This document shows, in pieces, positions 46,054-53,467 of a DNA stretch of 64,000 nt. The notes beneath the pieces are model-generated. The model had not been told where the DNA came from, searched no databases, and saw nothing but the letters and a program-made list of their open reading frames with translations. The translations under genes were made by a program, and so were the position numbers. The stretch is taken from assembly GCA_963716725.1 (NCBI GenBank), contig CAVQUB010000015.1, forward strand, positions 448,001 through 512,000. Direction: 5' to 3'. Origin of the DNA: an uncultured delta proteobacterium. GTDB taxonomy: Bacteria; Myxococcota_A; Polyangia; Polyangiales; Polyangiaceae. Position 1 is the stretch's first letter. Every line of letters starts with the position of its first letter.

Positions 46054-46434
46054 TCAGGCGCGAACCAGCTCCACGTGTCGTCCGGACGCTCTGGCGAGTG
46101 GCTCGATGTCATCGAGATCGGCCGTCACGATTTGATCGCCGTCTTGGGCGAGAATCACCAGCGCCGCGTCGATCACGTCGCTCTTCTTCGCGGTCGCCAG
46201 CAGCTCGCCGGCCGCGCGTCCCAAGCCATCGTCGAGAGGGCGCACCTCGATGCCGCCGAGCGCTCTTGCGAGGAGCGCTTGTCTGGGTCCGCCGGCGCGC
46301 CAAACCTGGCCAATCACACCTCCGTGAGAGATGGGGATCTCCGCGCGCTCCAGCGCGACCTTGAGTCGGCGCCACATCCCACGATCGTTGCGTTCGAGCG
46401 CGATCAACGCCCCGCTATCCAGAATCAGGGTCAC
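46054..46434 (-). CDS. vapC: PIN-domain toxin (VapC-like)
   Basis: LILDSGALIA, DVIDAALV, IVTADLDD; GTG overlaps the antitoxin stop. Confidence 0.85.
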   Translation of the reverse strand: MTLILDSGALIALERNDRGMWRRLKVALERAEIPISHGGVIGQVWRAGGPRQALLARALGGIEVRPLDDGLGRAAGELLATAKKSDVIDAALVILAQDGDQIVTADLDDIEPLARASGRHVELVRA

Positions 46435-46739
46435 CGGGCTCCGCGGGGTGCGTTGGCCGCCAGTTTGCGCGGTTTTCCGCGCACTACGACCGACGAGCGA
46501 CGGTCGGCACGCTCTTGGGCAACCAGCTCCGCCGCAGAGATCACTCCGAATTCGTGCTCGTAGAGCGCGAGCGCCTCCGACAAAGCCAATAGCCGGCGCT
46601 CCTTCGCGGCGCGCTCTGCCAGCGCGAGATTGACCCACCCGCTGAGCGATTCGGCTCGCCCCGAGCGAACGGCTTCGTTGCCAGCGCGGATGAGATCGGG
46701 ATCGACGGTCACCGTGAGGCGGCCTTTGCGAACGCTCAT
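46431..46739 (-). CDS. vapB: Ribbon-helix-helix antitoxin (VapB-like)
   Basis: KGRLTVTVDPDLI...SLSGWVNLAL; YEHEFGVIS; directly upstream of the PIN gene. Confidence 0.75.
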   Translation of the reverse strand: MSVRKGRLTVTVDPDLIRAGNEAVRSGRAESLSGWVNLALAERAAKERRLLALSEALALYEHEFGVISAAELVAQERADRRSSVVVRGKPRKLAANAPRGAR

Positions 46740-46774: not shown

Positions 46775-46876
46775 GCCGTCCGACGGTCCCAGGGGATCTC
46801 GGTTCGCTCCGCTCGAGAGGGTCTCCTCTTGGTGGGACTTGCGCTCGCAAGACCGCGCCCGTGCCGGGCGCCCCAA

Positions 46877-46916
46877 ATGACAAAGGCCCCGCGCTTTCGC
46901 GCAGGGCCCTCGTCAT
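46877..46916 (-). terminator. 18-bp stem-loop after the Cys-ladder lipoprotein gene
   Basis: On the minus strand all 18 pairs close (3 G-U wobbles) around a GAAA tetraloop; short U-tract. Confidence 0.75.
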
Positions 46917-46931
46917 CCGATGGGTCTCGGA

Positions 46932-48226
46932 TCAGCCAGCGCCGGCCGAGCCGCTCGCCGAAGCGCTCGCGCTCACCGACACGTTCAGGCTGACCGAAGC
47001 GTCCGCCTGAGCCTTGAGCGACGCCACGAGGCAGCCGCCGACCTTGAGAGCAGCCTGGCCGCCGCCCTTGACCGCCGCCTGAACGCCCTCGATCGACGCC
47101 TTCACGTTGGCGATCGCGCCTTCGATGCGACCCTTCATGCCGAGGGTCACCTTGAGCAGCGCCGGGAGGTTCTTCTCGAGCGCGCCCTTGAGCTTGGCCG
47201 ACGCTTCCGCGTCCGCCGCGCCGGAGAAGTTCACGCTGACCGAGGCCGGGGTGCACTCGAGCTTCGCGCTGACCTCAGCGTCGCAGTTCGCCTTGCACTC
47301 GGCGCTCATCTTCGGCGGGACGATCTCACCGGAGCACTTCGGCTCCTTGATCTCCACCGAGCAGCCACCCGAGCAGGAGCCTTCGCACTTGGCCGCGCCC
47401 TTGATCTCGCAGGAAGCCGAGCAGGAGCCCGAGCACTTGCCCTTGCAGCTGCCCTTGGCGCTCGCCGAGCACTTGCCTTCGCACTTGCCCTTGCAGGCGC
47501 CCTTGTTCTTGTCGCTGCCGGTCGAGGCTTGGCCGTCGCACTTGCCTTCGCAAGCGCCGCCGCAGGTGCCGCTGAAGTCAGCCTCGCAGCTGCCCTCGCA
47601 GGTGCCGCCGCAGCTGCCTTCGCACTTGGCGCCGGCTTCGACGGTGCAACCGCCCTTGCATTCGCCTTCGCATTTGCCGCTGATCTCGCCGCCCTCGCAC
47701 TTGACCTCGGCTTTGCCGCCCGAGACGCTCGCGTCGCAGGAGCCAGCGCAGTCGGCCATCGCGTTCATCGACGCGGAGCACTTCGGGGGAACGACCTTGA
47801 CGTCGAGCTTGCCGCTGATCTTCGCCTTGGCCTTGACGTCGCCCATGAACTTGACGGCGGCCGTGGCACGCGGCTTCCGCCTTCTTGCCCGGGCCCTCTT
47901 CCTTCGGGGTGATGTCCTCGTCCGACGCGCCCAGGTCCTTCGCCAGCTGGCCACAGGCGCCAGCGACGTCAGCCTCGACCGCGACCGCGAGGTTCTTGCA
48001 GGTTCGCGCCCGCAGCGAGCGCGCCCTTGATCTTGCCTTCCATCTCGCCCTGGAGGCCGAAGTTGGCCTTCATGATCGCGCTCGGATCATTGATGTCCGC
48101 CGGGCAGGACCCGGGCAGACCAGGCAGACCCGGCAGGCCACCACAGTTCATGAGCAGCGGCGCTGCAATCAGGGCCGCGGCGCCGAGCACCGGACCACCC
48201 ATCATCCGCCAACGATTTCCGACCAT
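46932..48226 (-). CDS. Cys-rich lipoprotein with a mirror-symmetric 28-Cys ladder (indels near 47870-48000)
   Basis: GAGGAGG SD, MVGNRWRMM...LLMNC lipobox; CxxxC repeats; helical C-terminus; strongly biased codon use. Confidence 0.85.
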
Positions 48227-48487
48227 CTTAAATTCCTCCTCAGGAAGCACTGCATTCCAAAGTCGCGGGGGACGCTACACCCAGAGGGCTGCGCTTTGGA
48301 AGCGCAGTCTTGTGGGCTTTGGTGTCGCCCGCCGGGGTCTTGTCACGAGCCCTCGCCGAGTACCGGCGCGAGCCCCGTTCTCTGACGCTCGCCGGGGCCA
48401 TCCCGGCTCACGTCGCCGGGCATATCGCCGCTTTTCTGTGCAAAGTAAAGCCTTTTGTTCAGTGTTGGGGGCCCAGCTGGGCGCGAT

Positions 48488-48880
48488 CTACCCAGAACGC
48501 TGGCCCGAGTTGCCTCGGCCCCGGGCCCGGCCGGCCCGCAGGGTCGCCGGCGAAGGATCCGCAAAAGGCAGCTCGACTTGGCTGGGATTGTGGGGCGCCG
48601 AGGGCCGCGCCCCGGTCCGCTCGAGCATCTGCCGCTCCTGTTCCATGTCCGCTTCCATCACCTCGAGGTTGTCGAGGGCGAAGGCCAGGGCGTCGAAGAC
48701 CTTGGCCGGTTCGATCTGCGGGTACCGTTTGAAGATGGTCTCGATGCGCGTGCCGCTCTTGTAGAAGGCGAACAGCCGCCGGACCGGGATCCGCGTGCCT
48801 GCCACATGCGGGCTTCCCCCCAGCACCTTCGCCTCGATCCGCACGTGGGGGTGCGGCACGAGCACGATCGGCAGGCTCAC
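48488..48880 (-). CDS. DUF433-domain protein
   Basis: [15 protein letters not shown]...YPQI...[11 protein letters not shown] overlaps the tkt stop. Confidence 0.85.
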
Positions 48881-50859
48881 CGAGGCCCTCCGGCGAAGTG
48901 AGCGCGGATGGCTGCCGCGACTCTCGCCGGAGTGAGCCCGAGCTCCTCCGCGATGCGCTCGGCGGGCGCCGAGGCGCCGAAGCGATCGATGCCGATGCTG
49001 AGGCCCGCCTCGCCGGTCACGCCGCGCCAGAGCGAGGTGCGCCCCGCCTCGAGAGTGACGCGGGGGATGCCGCTGCCGAGCACCGCGCTCTGATCGGACT
49101 GGGGCAGGCGCGTGAAGGCTTCCCAACACGGCGCGCTCACGACGCGCACGCGGAAGGCGTCGGACAGGAGTCGCTTGGCTTCGACAGCCACGCCGACCTC
49201 GCTGCCCGTGGCGATCAGCACGAGATCCGCGTCGGGTGCGTCGTCGAGCACGTAGGCACCTCGAAGCAGCAGCTTTTCGTCGAAGCCGCTCGGGCGCGAG
49301 AGCGTGGGCGTCTTCTGGCGGGTGAGCACCAAGGCGGTCGGCGCGTCTCGCCGCGACATGGCGTGGGCCCAGGCCGCCGCGCATTCCAGGCCATCCGCCG
49401 GGCGAACCACGTCGAGGTTCGGGATCAGGCGTAGCGCGGCGACGTGCTCGACGGGCTGGTGGGTCGGACCGTCTTCGCCCAGCAACACCGAATCGTGCGT
49501 GTAGATCCAGAGCGCGGGCTGCCCCATCAGGGCCGAGAGGCGCACGCTCGGTCGCATGTAGTCGCTGAAGACCAAGAACGTCGAGCCGAAGGGCACGAAG
49601 AAGCCAGAGAGCGCGAGGCCGTTGGAGATGGCGCCCATGGCGTGCTCGCGGATCCCGAAGGCCAGGTTCCTCCCGGCAAACTCTCCGCGCTTCACCTCGC
49701 CGCTGCCCTTGATGCCGGTCTTGCAGCTCTCGGCCAGATCGGCCGAGCCTCCGACGAGCGACGGCACCAGCTCCGCGACCTTCTGTTCGAGCTTGGCGCT
49801 GAGCGAGCGGGTGGCGTCCGCCTTTCCATCGATCAGCTTGGTCAGCTCGGTGAGCAAGTGCTCGGGCACCTGGCGAGTGGTGAGCTTCTGCCAGAGCTCG
49901 GCCCGGGGACCGCCGAGCTTCGCCACTTTGGCCTTCCACGCTGACAGGAGCTTCTGGTTGTCGGCGACCTGAGCGCGGAACAGATCCGTCGCGCCGGCCG
50001 GAACGTGGAAGGGATCCGCCGGCCAATCGGCCTTCTGCTTGGCCCCGGCGACCTCGTCCTTGCCGAGGGGCGCACCGTGGGCTCCCGAGGTGTCTTGTTT
50101 GGTCGGCGCGCCGATGGCGATGTGGGTCCGCGCCGCGATCAAGCTCGGGCGGCTGCTCTCCGCGGTGGCCGCGTCGAGGGCGGCGCGCACCGCGGCCGGG
50201 TCGTGGCCGTCGACCTGCTGCACGAACCAGCCGTAGGCCTCGAAGCGCTTGCCCACGTCTTCGCTGAAACTCAGGCTGGTCGGGCCGTCGATCGTGATCT
50301 TGTTGTCGTCGTAGACGAGCACCAGGTTGTCGAGGCCGAGGTGCCCGGCGAGGCTGGCGGCCTCGCTGGCGACGCCCTCCATCAGATCGCCGTCGCCGGC
50401 GATGGCGAACACGCGATAGTCGATGATGGCGTCTCCGGGTTCGTTGACCCGCGCCCCCATCATCTTGCCGGCGAGCGCGAGCCCGACCGCGTTGCCCACG
50501 CCTTGGCCCAGAGGGCCAGTGGTGGTCTCGACGCCCGGCGTGTGGCCCACCTCCGGATGTCCCGGTGTCCTGCTCCCCCACTGGCGGAACGCCTTCAGAT
50601 CATCGAGCGAGAGATCGTAACCTGCCAGGTGCAAGAGGGAGTAGAGCAGCATCGAGGCGTGGCCCGCCGAGAGCACGAAGCGATCGCGATTGGGCCAGCC
50701 CGGCTCGGTCGGCACGTAGCGCAGATGATGCGTAAACAGCTCGACGCCGATCCCCGCCAGCGCCATCGGGGTGCCCGGGTGTCCCGAGTTCGCCTGCTCG
50801 ACACCGTCCACGGACAAAAATCGCACGGTCTTGACCGCGGTCTCGAAGGCATTCGACAT
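48877..50859 (-). CDS. tkt: Transketolase
   Basis: [58 protein letters not shown]. Confidence 0.97.
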
Positions 50860-50998
50860 AGTCTGCTCCCGTAGTCCAGCGGCGCGGACCCGCCAAGGGG
50901 GCGAGCTCGCGCCCCGATTTTGCCGCAATGGGTCAGGCCGTCGCGCCAGAGAAACCGGTTGTGCCCCGCGCCGCCTCGGGCGATGTGCTGCCCGTCGA

Positions 50999-53467
50999 GT
51001 GAGACACCATCAACGAATCCTCGTCCGGTTGTTCGCCGTTGTGCTGTGGTTGGCCGGGCTCGCGCTGCCGTGCCGAGCTCAAGCTCAGGAGGGCGTGGTC
51101 GCGCCACGACTCGAGCGAGATGGCGGAGCGGCGTACCCGCTCCGCGCGCTCGCCGAGCGACACTACCAGCGCGTCGAGGTGGGGCTGGTCCTCGAAATCG
51201 ACGCCCGCGGCAGGGTGGTGCGCGCTAGCGTCGATCGCGCCCGGGGCCATGGATTCGACGAGGCTGCGCTCGAGGCGGCCAAGCAACTCGAATTCTCACC
51301 GGCGACCCGCAACGGCACGCCGGTGGCGGCGCGCATTCGCTTTCGATACGTCTTCGAGCCGCCCCCCGCGGCGCTCAGGGTCCAAGCCGTGGACGCGACA
51401 ACGGGAACGCCGCTGGGCGGCGCGCGCGTCACCCTCGAGGCCGCGAAGGGTAGTCCGCGGACGCTGCCGGGCGCGGGCGGAGGGAGCTTCACTGCCGCGG
51501 ACTTGCCCCACGGCCGCGTGCGTGTCCGGGTCGAAGCAGACGGGCACGCCGCACAGTCCTCGGACGTGACGCTCATTCCCGGTGACGACACCGAGATCGT
51601 CTTCCGCCTGTTGCCCGTCGCGGCGCCCACCGGCTCGACCCCCGAGCAGATCGAGGTCGTGGTACACGGCGAGAAGCCCGCGCCGGCGGTGAAGACCTTC
51701 AGTCGCGAGGAAGTGCGGCTGATCCCCGGAGCCTTCGGTGATCCCTTCCGGGCCATCGAGGCCATGCCGGGCGTGGTCCCCGTGGCCTCGGGGTTGCCCT
51801 TTTTCTACGTGCGAGGCGCACCTCCGGGCAACGTCGGCTACTTCCTGGACGGCGTCCGCGTCCCCTACCTCTATCACGTCATGTTCGGCCCTTCGGTCGT
51901 GCACCCCGGCCTCATCGAGCGGGTCGATCTGCATTCAGGCGGCTACCCGGCGAGCTTCGGGCGCTTCGCCGGCGGCATCGTGGCCGCAGAGACCAACCCG
52001 CCGCGTCCCGAGCTTCACGGCGAAGGCAACGTCCGCCTCTTCGACGCCGGAGCGTTGGTCGAGAGCGGCTTCGCCGACGGCCGCGGCACCGCCCTGGTGG
52101 GCGCGCGCTACTCCTACACGGCCGCGCTCGTGTCGCTGGTCGCCCCCGAGATCGAGCTCGCCTACCGGGACTACCAGGTCCGCCTGTCCTACGATCTTTC
52201 GCCGCGCGATCGGCTCACGCTGCTGTCCTTCGGCGCCTACGATCTGCTCGGTCGCGAGCGCAACGGAGACCTCACGGTGCTGTTCGGTACCGAGTTCTAC
52301 CGCCTCGATCTGCGCCACGATCACGACACGGGGCGCGGCTCCCTGCGCACCGCGTTCACTCTGGGGCTCGATCGCACCGCCAACGCCTTCCTCGCCGGCG
52401 AGCAGCGCACGATCACCACGCAGATCCTCGGCGCTCGCACTGCCCTCGATCATCGCCTGAGCGGCCAGACCCGGTTTCGCGCCGGGACCGACGGAACCGT
52501 GGAGCGCTACGCCGCCAGCGCGGCGAAGTACGCCGACCCGGACAGCCCGGAAACCCAGGCGTTCAGCCAGAGCTTTCCCCCACGCACCGATCTGACCTTC
52601 GGCGTCTGGGCCGATCTGGTGCTCGATGTCACGCCCGATATCGAGGTCATCCCCGGCGCACGGGTAGACCTGTACCGCTCGCAGTCCGCCAGCGCCGTCG
52701 GCGTCGATCCGCGCATCTCCGCCCGCTTCGCCGTATCCGACGACGTGCGCATCACCCACGCCTACGGCATCGCCCACCAGCCACCCTCGTTCGTGCTGCC
52801 GATCCCGGGCCTCACGCCGGCCACCCTGGAAGGGGGTCTCCAGCGCAGCTTGCAGACCGGCGCCGGGGTCGAGGTCGACGTGGCCGACGCCACGACGGCG
52901 AGCCTGACCTTGTTCTACAATGTCTTCTTGGGCATGACGGACGCGCTCGGCTCTGAATCCCGCACCCAGGACGGGCCGCCGACCCAGGAGGTCGACGAGC
53001 GATCCATGGGCTCGGCGGTGGGCGCAGAGGTCTTCTTGAAGCGCAAGCTGACCAAGCGCCTCGGCGGCTTCGTTTCGTACACGCTCTCGCGCTCGACCCG
53101 CAGCCTCGGCAGCGAGGAGTTCCCCAGCAACTTCGATCGCACGCACGTGCTCAACGCTGCTCTCGGCTACGACCTTGGACGTGGCTGGCGTCCGGGCGGT
53201 CGCGTGGTGTTCTACACCGGCACGCCGGTCCAGGCCTCGCAGAACGAGGACGCGAGCTCGCCGCCCCGCACCACCGACGACGTCGACCGCTCGCCGGCGT
53301 TTTTCCGCCTCGATCTGCGGCTGGAGAAGCGTTGGGCCTTGGGCGGCTCAACCTGGCTCTCTTTCGTGGCCGAGGTGCTCAACGCCACGCTCAGCAAGGA
53401 GACCTTCGGCGACCAAGAGATCGGCCCCATCACCATCCCGAGCGTCGGCTTGGAGGGAGGGTTCTAG
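50999..53467 (+). CDS. TonB-dependent receptor with N-terminal TonB_C and carboxypeptidase-regulatory-like domains; start approximate
   Basis: YP...EIDARGRV...[20 protein letters not shown] (TonB_C); [17 protein letters not shown] plug; C-terminal GLEGGF. Confidence 0.88.

Follow-up and report, generated by a model that had tools for sequence, protein, structure and literature searches.

A candidate nested-disulfide hairpin with mirror-spaced cysteines in a predicted lipoprotein family of Polyangia

Hairpins braced by paired cysteines are known from several systems. In tachyplesin, polyphemusin, gomesin, protegrin and theta-defensin, one antiparallel strand pair is held by nested cross-strand disulfides, as described in PMC13001179. 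The small Tims and Cox17/Cox19 carry twin CX3C or CX9C motifs in which C2-C3 makes the inner and C1-C4 the outer disulfide, and bind Zn in the reduced state, according to PMC3759932, while Myxococcus TraA, in the account of PMC3325183, is a secreted envelope protein whose Cys-rich region is proposed to be oxidized and to form a rigid stalk. Here we describe a minus-strand gene (46932-48226) in a 64,000-nucleotide stretch of DNA (the window; positions 448,001 to 512,000 of contig CAVQUB010000015.1, assembly GCA_963716725.1) from an uncultured delta proteobacterium of the Polyangiaceae, which encodes an exported, probably lipid-anchored protein whose core cysteines are spaced as an exact mirror around a central loop. 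The family to which it belongs is real and unusual, and the structural core of our interpretation is supported indirectly but strongly. We hold with moderate confidence that the protein is an expressed envelope protein containing an intramolecular mirror hairpin stapled by nested disulfides, a judgment that does not extend to its possible function as a strut.

The argument starts from an open reading frame (ORF) at 46932-47954 on the minus strand, which contains 29 cysteines. The first 28 define a core of 176 amino acids (aa) that runs from the codon beginning at 47780 to the codon at 47255-47253, with a loop at its center:

47253 to 47780, minus strand: 176-aa core with 28 mirror-spaced Cys and 14 presumed rungs (from the spacing and the homolog patterns).
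47496 to 47537, minus strand: 14-aa tip loop, DGQASTGSDKNKGA (from the spacing count).

The spacers of arm 1 are 9,3,12,8,3,3,7,3,3,3,7,3,3, the tip spacer is 14, and the spacers of arm 2 (3,3,7,3,3,3,7,3,3,8,12,3,9) are those of arm 1 in exact reverse. The palindromic spacing claimed by the original prediction, which was made from the sequence of the window alone, is therefore confirmed as a mirror of 27 spacers. With the spacer set of one arm fixed, the mirror is 1 of 77,220 possible orders (13!/(8!*2!), hand arithmetic). The residues between the cysteines are not palindromic, with the exception that Gly lies opposite Gly in the CxGxC blocks. The protein as a whole has 32 Cys per 402 mature residues and is near neutral in charge (21 K+R vs 25 D+E).

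The likeness to the beta-hairpin peptides lies in the single antiparallel strand pair with parallel, nested cross-strand disulfides, and the arthropod members have the same C-x3-C ... C-x3-C spacing as the ladder. Those peptides, however, are cationic, membrane-acting molecules of 16-18 aa with 2-3 rungs and have no sequence relationship to the ladder, whereas the core described here has 176 aa and 14 presumed rungs (10-19 in most of the family) and belongs to a near-neutral lipoprotein of 430 aa. The twin CX3C/CX9C proteins also place Cys motifs as mirror images in two hairpin arms, but their arms are alpha-helical and make two rungs, while the ladder arms are Gly-rich, built of CxGxC and predicted to be beta, with many presumed rungs. 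Like TraA, a smaller ladder protein of this genome, the C12 protein described below, has a MYXO-CTERM-like tail. TraA is built of direct tandem repeats (TIGR04201), whereas the ladder is a mirror hairpin with no PA14 head and an N-terminal anchor, and neither P0001 (an intact homolog of 430 aa) nor P0041 gave an NCBIfam match to TIGR04201 at E <= 1. Many regularly spaced cysteines are found in Csp and the metallothioneins as well; the Cys of Csp line a four-helix bundle, whereas the Cys region here is predicted to be a beta ribbon. The principle of the braced hairpin is already known, and the hairpin peptides, the twin CX3C proteins and TraA are not homologous to the ladder. As far as our searches reach, what is new is the scale of 10-19 rungs, the class-wide mirror rule and the helical foot of a lipoprotein.

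The mirror is a property of the family and not of the window gene alone. A word-indexed search returned 3028 relatives at E <= 0.001, of which the nearest 120 were compared for spacing; an exhaustive search returned 774 clusters at 50% identity (172 at E <= 1e-30), and 150 representatives were compared. Among the nearest homologs, 114 of 120 keep the mirror of 27 spacers, the remaining six are one residue off in one spacer, and the tip spacer alone varies (8 to 14). Both outer anchors are present in 133 of the 150 representatives, and in 129 of these 133 the number of core Cys, which ranges from 6 to 38, is even. Exact mirrors account for 73 of the 133 and fall into 41 distinct arm patterns; a further 56 have an even count with a small spacer mismatch (21 are off by a single residue), and four have an odd count. 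The 17 representatives set aside comprise 13 partial sequences in which one anchor or arm is absent, one tandem, and P0136, P0207 and P0220, where the outer anchor spacing is changed in both arms; in P0136 and P0207 the corresponding Cys is absent from each arm. When every Cys after the lipobox Cys is counted, the number is even in 193 of 228 full-length homologs. The homolog sequences are related and the pattern counts are not independent events; even so, symmetric changes must have taken place many times separately to yield the 41 distinct exact patterns, and the symmetry across the family means that Cys were gained, lost and moved in both arms together. Judged from these alignments, the results support a joint constraint on position i and its mirror position in the other arm, and the symmetric gain and loss that the original prediction had proposed to look for among homologs is borne out by the even counts and exact mirrors.

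The same behavior is seen within the genome, where the three clear paralogs have 10, 14 and 14 presumed rungs. The C2 paralog has relocated Cys (9,3,5,8,8,3,9,...) in arms of the same length, mirrored except at one spacer (7 vs 8), and the C20 paralog has four Cys fewer per arm and is a perfect mirror. Two variants of the architecture were also observed. In the 831-aa protein P0131, two complete modules of foot plus ladder occur naturally in tandem; each is mirrored, and their respective arms have 16 spacers (17 Cys) and 14 spacers (15 Cys). The C12 protein (L007:1270-2190, plus strand, equal to G000:C12 ~262670-263590) is a secreted protein of 306 aa that has no helical foot; its 37 Cys form an approximately mirrored 2 x 17 ladder with a tip spacer of 5. 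Its tail is at most MYXO-CTERM-like, with a TIGR03901 score of 18.3 bits over residues 272-304 (E = 0.0022), just below the cut-off of 20, and the protein may be a surface-anchored version of the ladder idea. Directly 3' of the C2 paralog lies a gene for an Mrp/NUBPL-type iron-sulfur carrier ATPase (L002:2775-3746, plus strand; ParA/NUBPL, E = 1e-99), a position that is probably coincidental, though relevant to the metal-binding alternative weighed below.

Covariation between the arms was computed from 117 distinct homologs with the window spacing, aligned gap-free (effective number 49). The mean mutual information between arms, after average product correction, peaks at mirror offset 0 (0.047) and drops to ~0.01 once the offset reaches +-12 to 20; the parallel diagonals give ~0. 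Of the ten inter-arm pairs with the strongest signal, seven are no more than 4 residues away from the mirror, against an expectation of ~1. In the CxGxC blocks the central Gly is nearly invariant and stands opposite a Gly, an arrangement that would imply very tight strand packing on the Cys face. AlphaFold2 models the full-length protein as helices, a beta-rich middle and helices again (predicted local distance difference test, pLDDT, 78.3; predicted template modeling score, pTM, 0.71), and models the 201-aa domain alone, from 146 aligned rows, at pLDDT 90.7 and pTM 0.75. In the domain model the secondary-structure elements mirror each other about i + j = 203: a beta-beta-alpha unit leads into long, interrupted strands up to the tip, and long strands then lead back to an alpha-beta-beta unit. 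When this model is compared by VIA-align, its residues ~13-30 and 173-190 co-align onto single compact alpha/beta domains of ~50-59 aa; since both ends of the domain align together, the model closes the base of the hairpin into a small collar. The core is thus predicted with confidence to be a mirror-symmetric antiparallel beta hairpin on a small alpha/beta collar, and the modeled strands and the covariation both point to two antiparallel strands in register. The long hairpin envisaged at the outset is therefore upheld in the model, with a closed base, flanking helices and arms that covary in antiparallel register.

The tip loop fared differently. It had been put forward as a possible binding site, and its length and sequence do vary: among the 117 homologs with the same pattern, loops of 8 (75 homologs), 9 (29), 14 (9), 10 (2) and 11 (2) residues occur in 76 distinct sequences, and the loop spans 8-17 residues in all. 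The D-G start is nevertheless largely conserved, the composition is of Lys, Asp, Ser and Gly, and the ratio of nonsynonymous to synonymous substitution rates (dN/dS) in the ladder is 0.07-0.35 in the 12 closest ortholog pairs. Because of the conserved start and the purifying selection, the tip is not marked as a hypervariable binding site; from its sequences it looks like a turn, with no sign of a diversifying binding site.

No characterized family or solved fold was matched in Pfam, NCBIfam, PDB or BFVD, in line with the earlier statement that no bacterial family of this architecture was known. A sequence search of PDB with the single protein gave no matches, and a profile search gave three spurious low-complexity matches only. 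With the ladder domain, the best E that Foldseek returned from PDB was 1.1, with template modeling (TM) scores <= 0.20; none of the 48,161 chains compared by VIA-align reached Z >= 5 (the best, Z = 4.5, covers only ~50 collar residues), and the search of the viral structures in BFVD gave a best E of 0.7. With the full model, Foldseek returned only rows at E >= 0.62 with a flagellin, FlgL or VSG-like topology, and the VIA-align matches were discarded as generic helical bundles whose best Z (8.5) is within the noise of the tool for helical proteins. The ESM Atlas cluster names 'FliK family' and 'polymer-forming cytoskeletal' are minority or compositional matches and were not used. Bactofilin (PF04519) was rejected at 23.3, 21.3, 21.6, 13.5 and 16.3 bits against a cut-off of 27.9; these sub-threshold matches cover only parts of the proteins, either the C-terminal region (as does the 23.3-bit match) or the Cys core. 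Literature searches on Cys-rich or disulfide-ladder lipoproteins and on PF27846 listed no description of this family.

The regions that flank the core, and the signals around the gene, are as follows.

48235 to 48240, minus strand: Shine-Dalgarno sequence AGGAGG, 8 nucleotides (nt) 5' of the ATG at 48226 (read from the sequence).
48143 to 48226, minus strand: ATG (48226-48224), signal peptide and lipobox-like LLMNC (from the sequence and homologs).
47820 to 48142, minus strand: Pro/Gly tether GGLPGLPGLPGS and N-terminal helical region with three invariant Cys (from the sequence, homologs and AlphaFold).
47991 to 47998, minus strand: first frame break, with one base extra compared with relatives (from contig comparison).
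47865 to 47866, minus strand: second frame break, with an extra C after a Cys codon (from contig comparison).
47217 to 47819, minus strand: 201-aa collar-plus-ladder domain (from AlphaFold2).
46935 to 47216, minus strand: C-terminal helical hairpin with one invariant Cys and a conserved Ser/Ala-rich tail (from AlphaFold and homologs).
46932 to 46934, minus strand: stop codon TGA (from the sequence).
46875 to 46919, minus strand: perfect stem-loop of ~21 bp just 3' of the stop, followed by a U-rich stretch (from folding).

In the numbering of the intact homolog P0001, the helices of the N-terminal region are residues 60-97 and 114-134, and those of the C-terminal hairpin are 339-387 and 390-428; the helical termini with further Cys named in the original prediction are thus present in the models, and four Cys outside the core, in these two regions, are invariant in 81 homologs. 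The strong Shine-Dalgarno sequence it named is likewise in place. Its lipobox stands in part: a hydrophobic N-terminus runs into LLMNC-GG, which has an invariant Cys but a noncanonical residue at -1. The usual lipobox rule calls for G/A/S at this position, which is Asn in the window gene; among 228 homologs G/A/S occurs in 86 and D/N in 113, so lipidation, though likely, is not certain. The C2 and C20 paralogs have the canonical lipoboxes MSGC and SMSC. The presumed lipidated residue is Cys28 (codon 48145-48143), and both Cys28 and Gly29 are invariant in the 81 homologs. Sorting in Myxococcus xanthus, as set out in PMC3222651, assigns +2 Lys to the inner membrane and +7 Ala to the matrix. The window protein has +2 Gly and +7 Leu and matches neither signal, so that these rules, which come from another class of the phylum, would by analogy retain it in the outer membrane.

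The codon usage of the gene, claimed to be very biased, gives an effective codon number of 26.9, the fourth lowest of the 3764 ORFs called in the genome (median 37.7). It ranks next to EF-Ts, RRF, DnaK and a fragment of RpoC, and by a codon-preference score against that reference set it is 49th of 3764. This usage suggests high expression, and the protein is probably abundant. The stem-loop 3' of the gene, also part of the original claim, folds at -50.3 kcal/mol (z = -5.1; none of 200 shuffles folds as well) and is likely a transcript end or stabilizer. A scan of the locus for consensus promoters and terminators called none of either, the stem-loop included, and Rfam gave only a chance-level match (the sRNA BjrC68, 19.6 bits vs a gathering score of 39). 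Upstream, an intergenic region of ~625 bp (48251-48876) separates the lipoprotein gene from a transketolase gene; no Rfam family was matched in it, and a simple scan found no sigma-70-like promoter. Contigs of two metatranscriptome libraries cover a gene that is ~95% identical, which is a weak hint of expression only; the RNA-library contigs of a relative reach ~100 nt 5' of the ATG.

Searches across the phylum place the family largely within the class Polyangia, as far as sequence matches indicate. The titles of all 53 related loci from species genomes name Polyangiaceae, Polyangiales, Polyangia, Sorangium, Nannocystis, Nannocystaceae, Myxococcales and Myxococcota, besides unclassified (delta)proteobacterial or bacterial metagenome-assembled genomes. 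When the phylum was sampled evenly with 301 genomes, 38 of them gave matches at E <= 1e-10, usually several per genome; matches occur in 20 of the 23 sampled genomes of the family to which the window belongs and in most sampled families of the order and class, and only two weak matches lie outside the class. The 12 closest ortholog pairs have dN/dS values of 0.08-0.29 overall, and from these sequence comparisons the family is under purifying selection.

The orthologs have conserved housekeeping neighbors. In the window, Pfam identifies these as transketolase on the upstream side and, downstream, a GlmM-type mutase, an ABC/FtsX transporter and NagZ; at the related loci, clustering and inspection by eye show transketolase, GlmM-like, HisS-like and MltG-like genes in 13-17 of 53. 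Two small overlapping ORFs (46054-46739, minus strand; 102 aa and up to 194 aa) separate nagZ from the lipoprotein gene. Pfam gave no match to them at E <= 1, and none of the conserved neighbor clusters stood out as their counterpart. They may be a small inserted cassette; an impression that they form a toxin-antitoxin pair is unsupported by any Pfam match. Further away, in a TonB-dependent receptor (50771-53467, plus strand), the plug and barrel are preceded by a TonB_C domain at the N-terminus and by a CarboxypepD_reg domain, an unusual fusion order.

As assembled, the gene lies in three frames, with breaks near 47991-47998 and at 47865/6, and its N-terminal region (47820-48142) is spread over all three. 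We compared contigs from four public runs, the DNA runs X1 and X5 and the RNA-library runs X13 and X15, giving no weight to stretches without contig cover in X5, X13 and X15. One base is missing at 47865 in the contigs of all four runs, and one is missing at 47993 in the contigs of X13 and X15, which derive from relatives ~95% identical; in X1, the best of the DNA runs for this locus, contigs end at the first break without bridging it. The intact homolog P0001 has an uninterrupted 430 aa, is 99% identical over the 309 aa compared and is found on 13 contigs, and the same-genus genomes G125 and G275 give full matches over residues 1-430 without stops. The essential dnaK gene of the same assembly (G000:C15:226950-227300; L070/L079, outside the window) is also frameshifted, with HSP70 residues 1-214 and 251-589 in separate ORFs; indel errors therefore occur in this assembly, and seem to be frequent. 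Several other genes in the list of low codon numbers are likewise present only as fragments (RpoC, Peptidase_M2, OPT, MlaE).

These data bear on two readings in which the window gene is not what it appears to be. It could be a true pseudogene in this genome, broken by two 1-base insertions and a relic of the family, as the three frames and the lack of an X1 DNA contig across the first break would allow. We regard this as improbable, because the base at 47865 is absent from contigs of both DNA and both RNA-library runs, the relatives are intact over their full length, dnaK is frameshifted in the same assembly, and dN/dS between the window and its closest locus, L008, is 0.16. For these reasons both frameshifts are probably assembly errors rather than gene decay; the indels flagged for repair at ~47870-48000 are indeed there, but most likely do not mark decay of the gene. 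The protein could also be the target of a radical S-adenosylmethionine (SAM) maturase, i.e., a modified-peptide precursor of the Cxxx-repeat type (PF27846/TIGR04114), since a precomputed match to PF27846.1 (tSAM_targ_Cxxx_rpt) is present on all 120 homologs listed and TIGR04114 matches weakly. The feature in common is the Cxxx periodicity, and the match rests on that repeat. The TIGR04114 scores of P0001 (12.7 bits) and P0041 (16.9 bits) are below the cut-off of 20, the best score for the maturase TIGR04115 in the genome is 61.6 bits (contig C30) against a cut-off of 350, no radical-SAM gene was found among the window neighbors scanned or the eight commonest neighbor clusters of the 53 loci, and the protein is a folded lipoprotein of 430 aa and not a short peptide. 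Given the low TIGR04114 scores and the lack of a maturase, the PF27846 label probably reflects periodicity rather than membership, and we consider this explanation almost certainly wrong.

The other two alternatives concern chemistry and assembly. In a metal-thiolate ladder, the facing Cys would be reduced and would jointly bind Cu(I), Zn or Cd, making the protein a periplasmic metal store, metal sponge or redox buffer. A ligand shared between facing Cys would also yield a mirror constraint, the 32 Cys in 402 mature residues would suit such a role, and the twin CX3C of the small Tims binds Zn when reduced and forms disulfides when oxidized (PMC3759932), so that a single motif is capable of both. 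We nevertheless think it unlikely: the protein is exported to a compartment with many DsbA-like, VKOR and DsbD proteins, the invariant Gly-Gly facing suggests very close packing of the strands, there are no His, Met or CxxC/CxC metal motifs and no conserved metal-related neighbors, and a structural protein accords better with the conserved housekeeping neighbors and with the extreme codon bias. In an inter-chain swapped ladder, arm 1 would pair antiparallel with arm 2 of another molecule, giving cross-linked dimers or an envelope lattice, for which the cysteine-rich outer-membrane complex of Chlamydia offers a comparison. Logically, palindromic spacing suits an antiparallel homodimer equally well; the protein also looks abundant, and its conserved Ser/Ala-rich C-terminal tail could mediate assembly. 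AlphaFold, however, closes the hairpin within one molecule at high confidence with the ends packed together, and the tip, a short turn rich in Gly, Asp and Lys whose D-G start is conserved, is of the kind expected where a chain reverses. This leaves the swapped arrangement with a low probability. An intramolecular ladder is the simplest reading, because the protein is exported, Dsb and VKOR proteins are present and the number of Cys is even.

The oxidizing machinery of the genome comprises 14 DsbA-like Thioredoxin_4 domains, two VKOR and one DsbD_TM. Six of the Thioredoxin_4 domains are in tandem in two frames of 800 and 669 aa (G000:C10:74047-77843, outside the window), three are in one frame of 1022 aa (G000:C8:352034-353746, also outside the window), and another adjoins VKOR (C22:54764-55720). 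This oxidative-folding set is unusually expanded, which may bear on proteins with many disulfides.

Under the intramolecular reading, the gene would encode an exported, probably lipid-anchored protein of 430 aa, in which the lipidated Cys is followed by a short Pro/Gly tether. A helical base would be built from four helices, two N-terminal and two C-terminal, and both ends of the chain would contribute beta-beta-alpha elements to a small collar, from which a two-stranded antiparallel beta ribbon of ~2 x 55-80 residues would project. Cys i would lie opposite Cys 29-i, with Gly opposite Gly within each CxGxC block. In the oxidizing envelope, the facing Cys would form ~14 nested disulfide rungs and the four invariant Cys of the base probably two more disulfides. 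The product would be a covalently stapled, hydrophilic, stiff rod of 17-25 nm, a very rough estimate at 3.3 A per residue, and its length would evolve by the addition or removal of rungs in both arms at once.

As to function, we tentatively favor an abundant structural strut or spacer in the envelope, lipid-anchored with its tip away from the membrane, over a surface-exposed spike, which comes next and which we consider rather doubtful. The strut is preferred because of the high predicted expression, the purifying selection, the housekeeping synteny and a length that varies in whole rungs. Braun's lipoprotein Lpp, an abundant rod that is lipidated at its N-terminus and serves as a spacer in the envelope, is a working analogy for this function; it is a 58-aa helical trimer that contains no Cys and is linked to peptidoglycan, and Pfam LPP gave no match at E <= 1. 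In a more specific and somewhat speculative form, which we also think unlikely though possible, the covalently laddered beta-ribbon rod of Polyangia, on its lipid-anchored helical foot, would be an envelope element of a kind not recognized before: a molecular ruler or strut that fixes an envelope distance, its length being set stepwise by symmetric gain or loss of rungs. The distance would then be that between outer membrane and wall, between outer and inner membrane, or between cell surface and matrix, and paralogs with different numbers of rungs would set different spacings.

Several observations weigh against the stapled hairpin as an expressed envelope strut. The joint constraint on facing Cys does not show oxidation, and 60 of the 133 representatives depart from an exact mirror. 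Covariation has a broad peak (0.047 at offset 0 vs 0.038 at +-2, with an effective number of only 49), so that the register is set no more closely than to a few residues. Vectorial oxidation by DsbA does not lend itself to nested pairing, which would need isomerization. As assembled, the copy in the window carries frameshifts. The lipobox rule is broken by Asn or Asp at -1, and lipidation of the protein, though likely from its sequence, is not certain. Repetitive composition could partly explain the low effective codon number, and the housekeeping neighborhood gives no functional clue and no obvious operon partner.

If the ladder is real, it would be the longest regular nested-disulfide stack in a natural protein, as far as our searches reach, and a fold without a solved relative. 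It would pose a folding problem, since the first Cys out of the translocon must await the last, a puzzle for the Dsb/VKOR system, and protein designers would gain from it a natural model for rods that are stiff, resistant to proteases and tunable in length. The carriers include most sampled Polyangiaceae and the culturable Sorangium and Nannocystis, usually with several copies, so that the protein, if the interpretation is true, would be an unrecognized major envelope component of an ecologically and biotechnologically important bacterial class.

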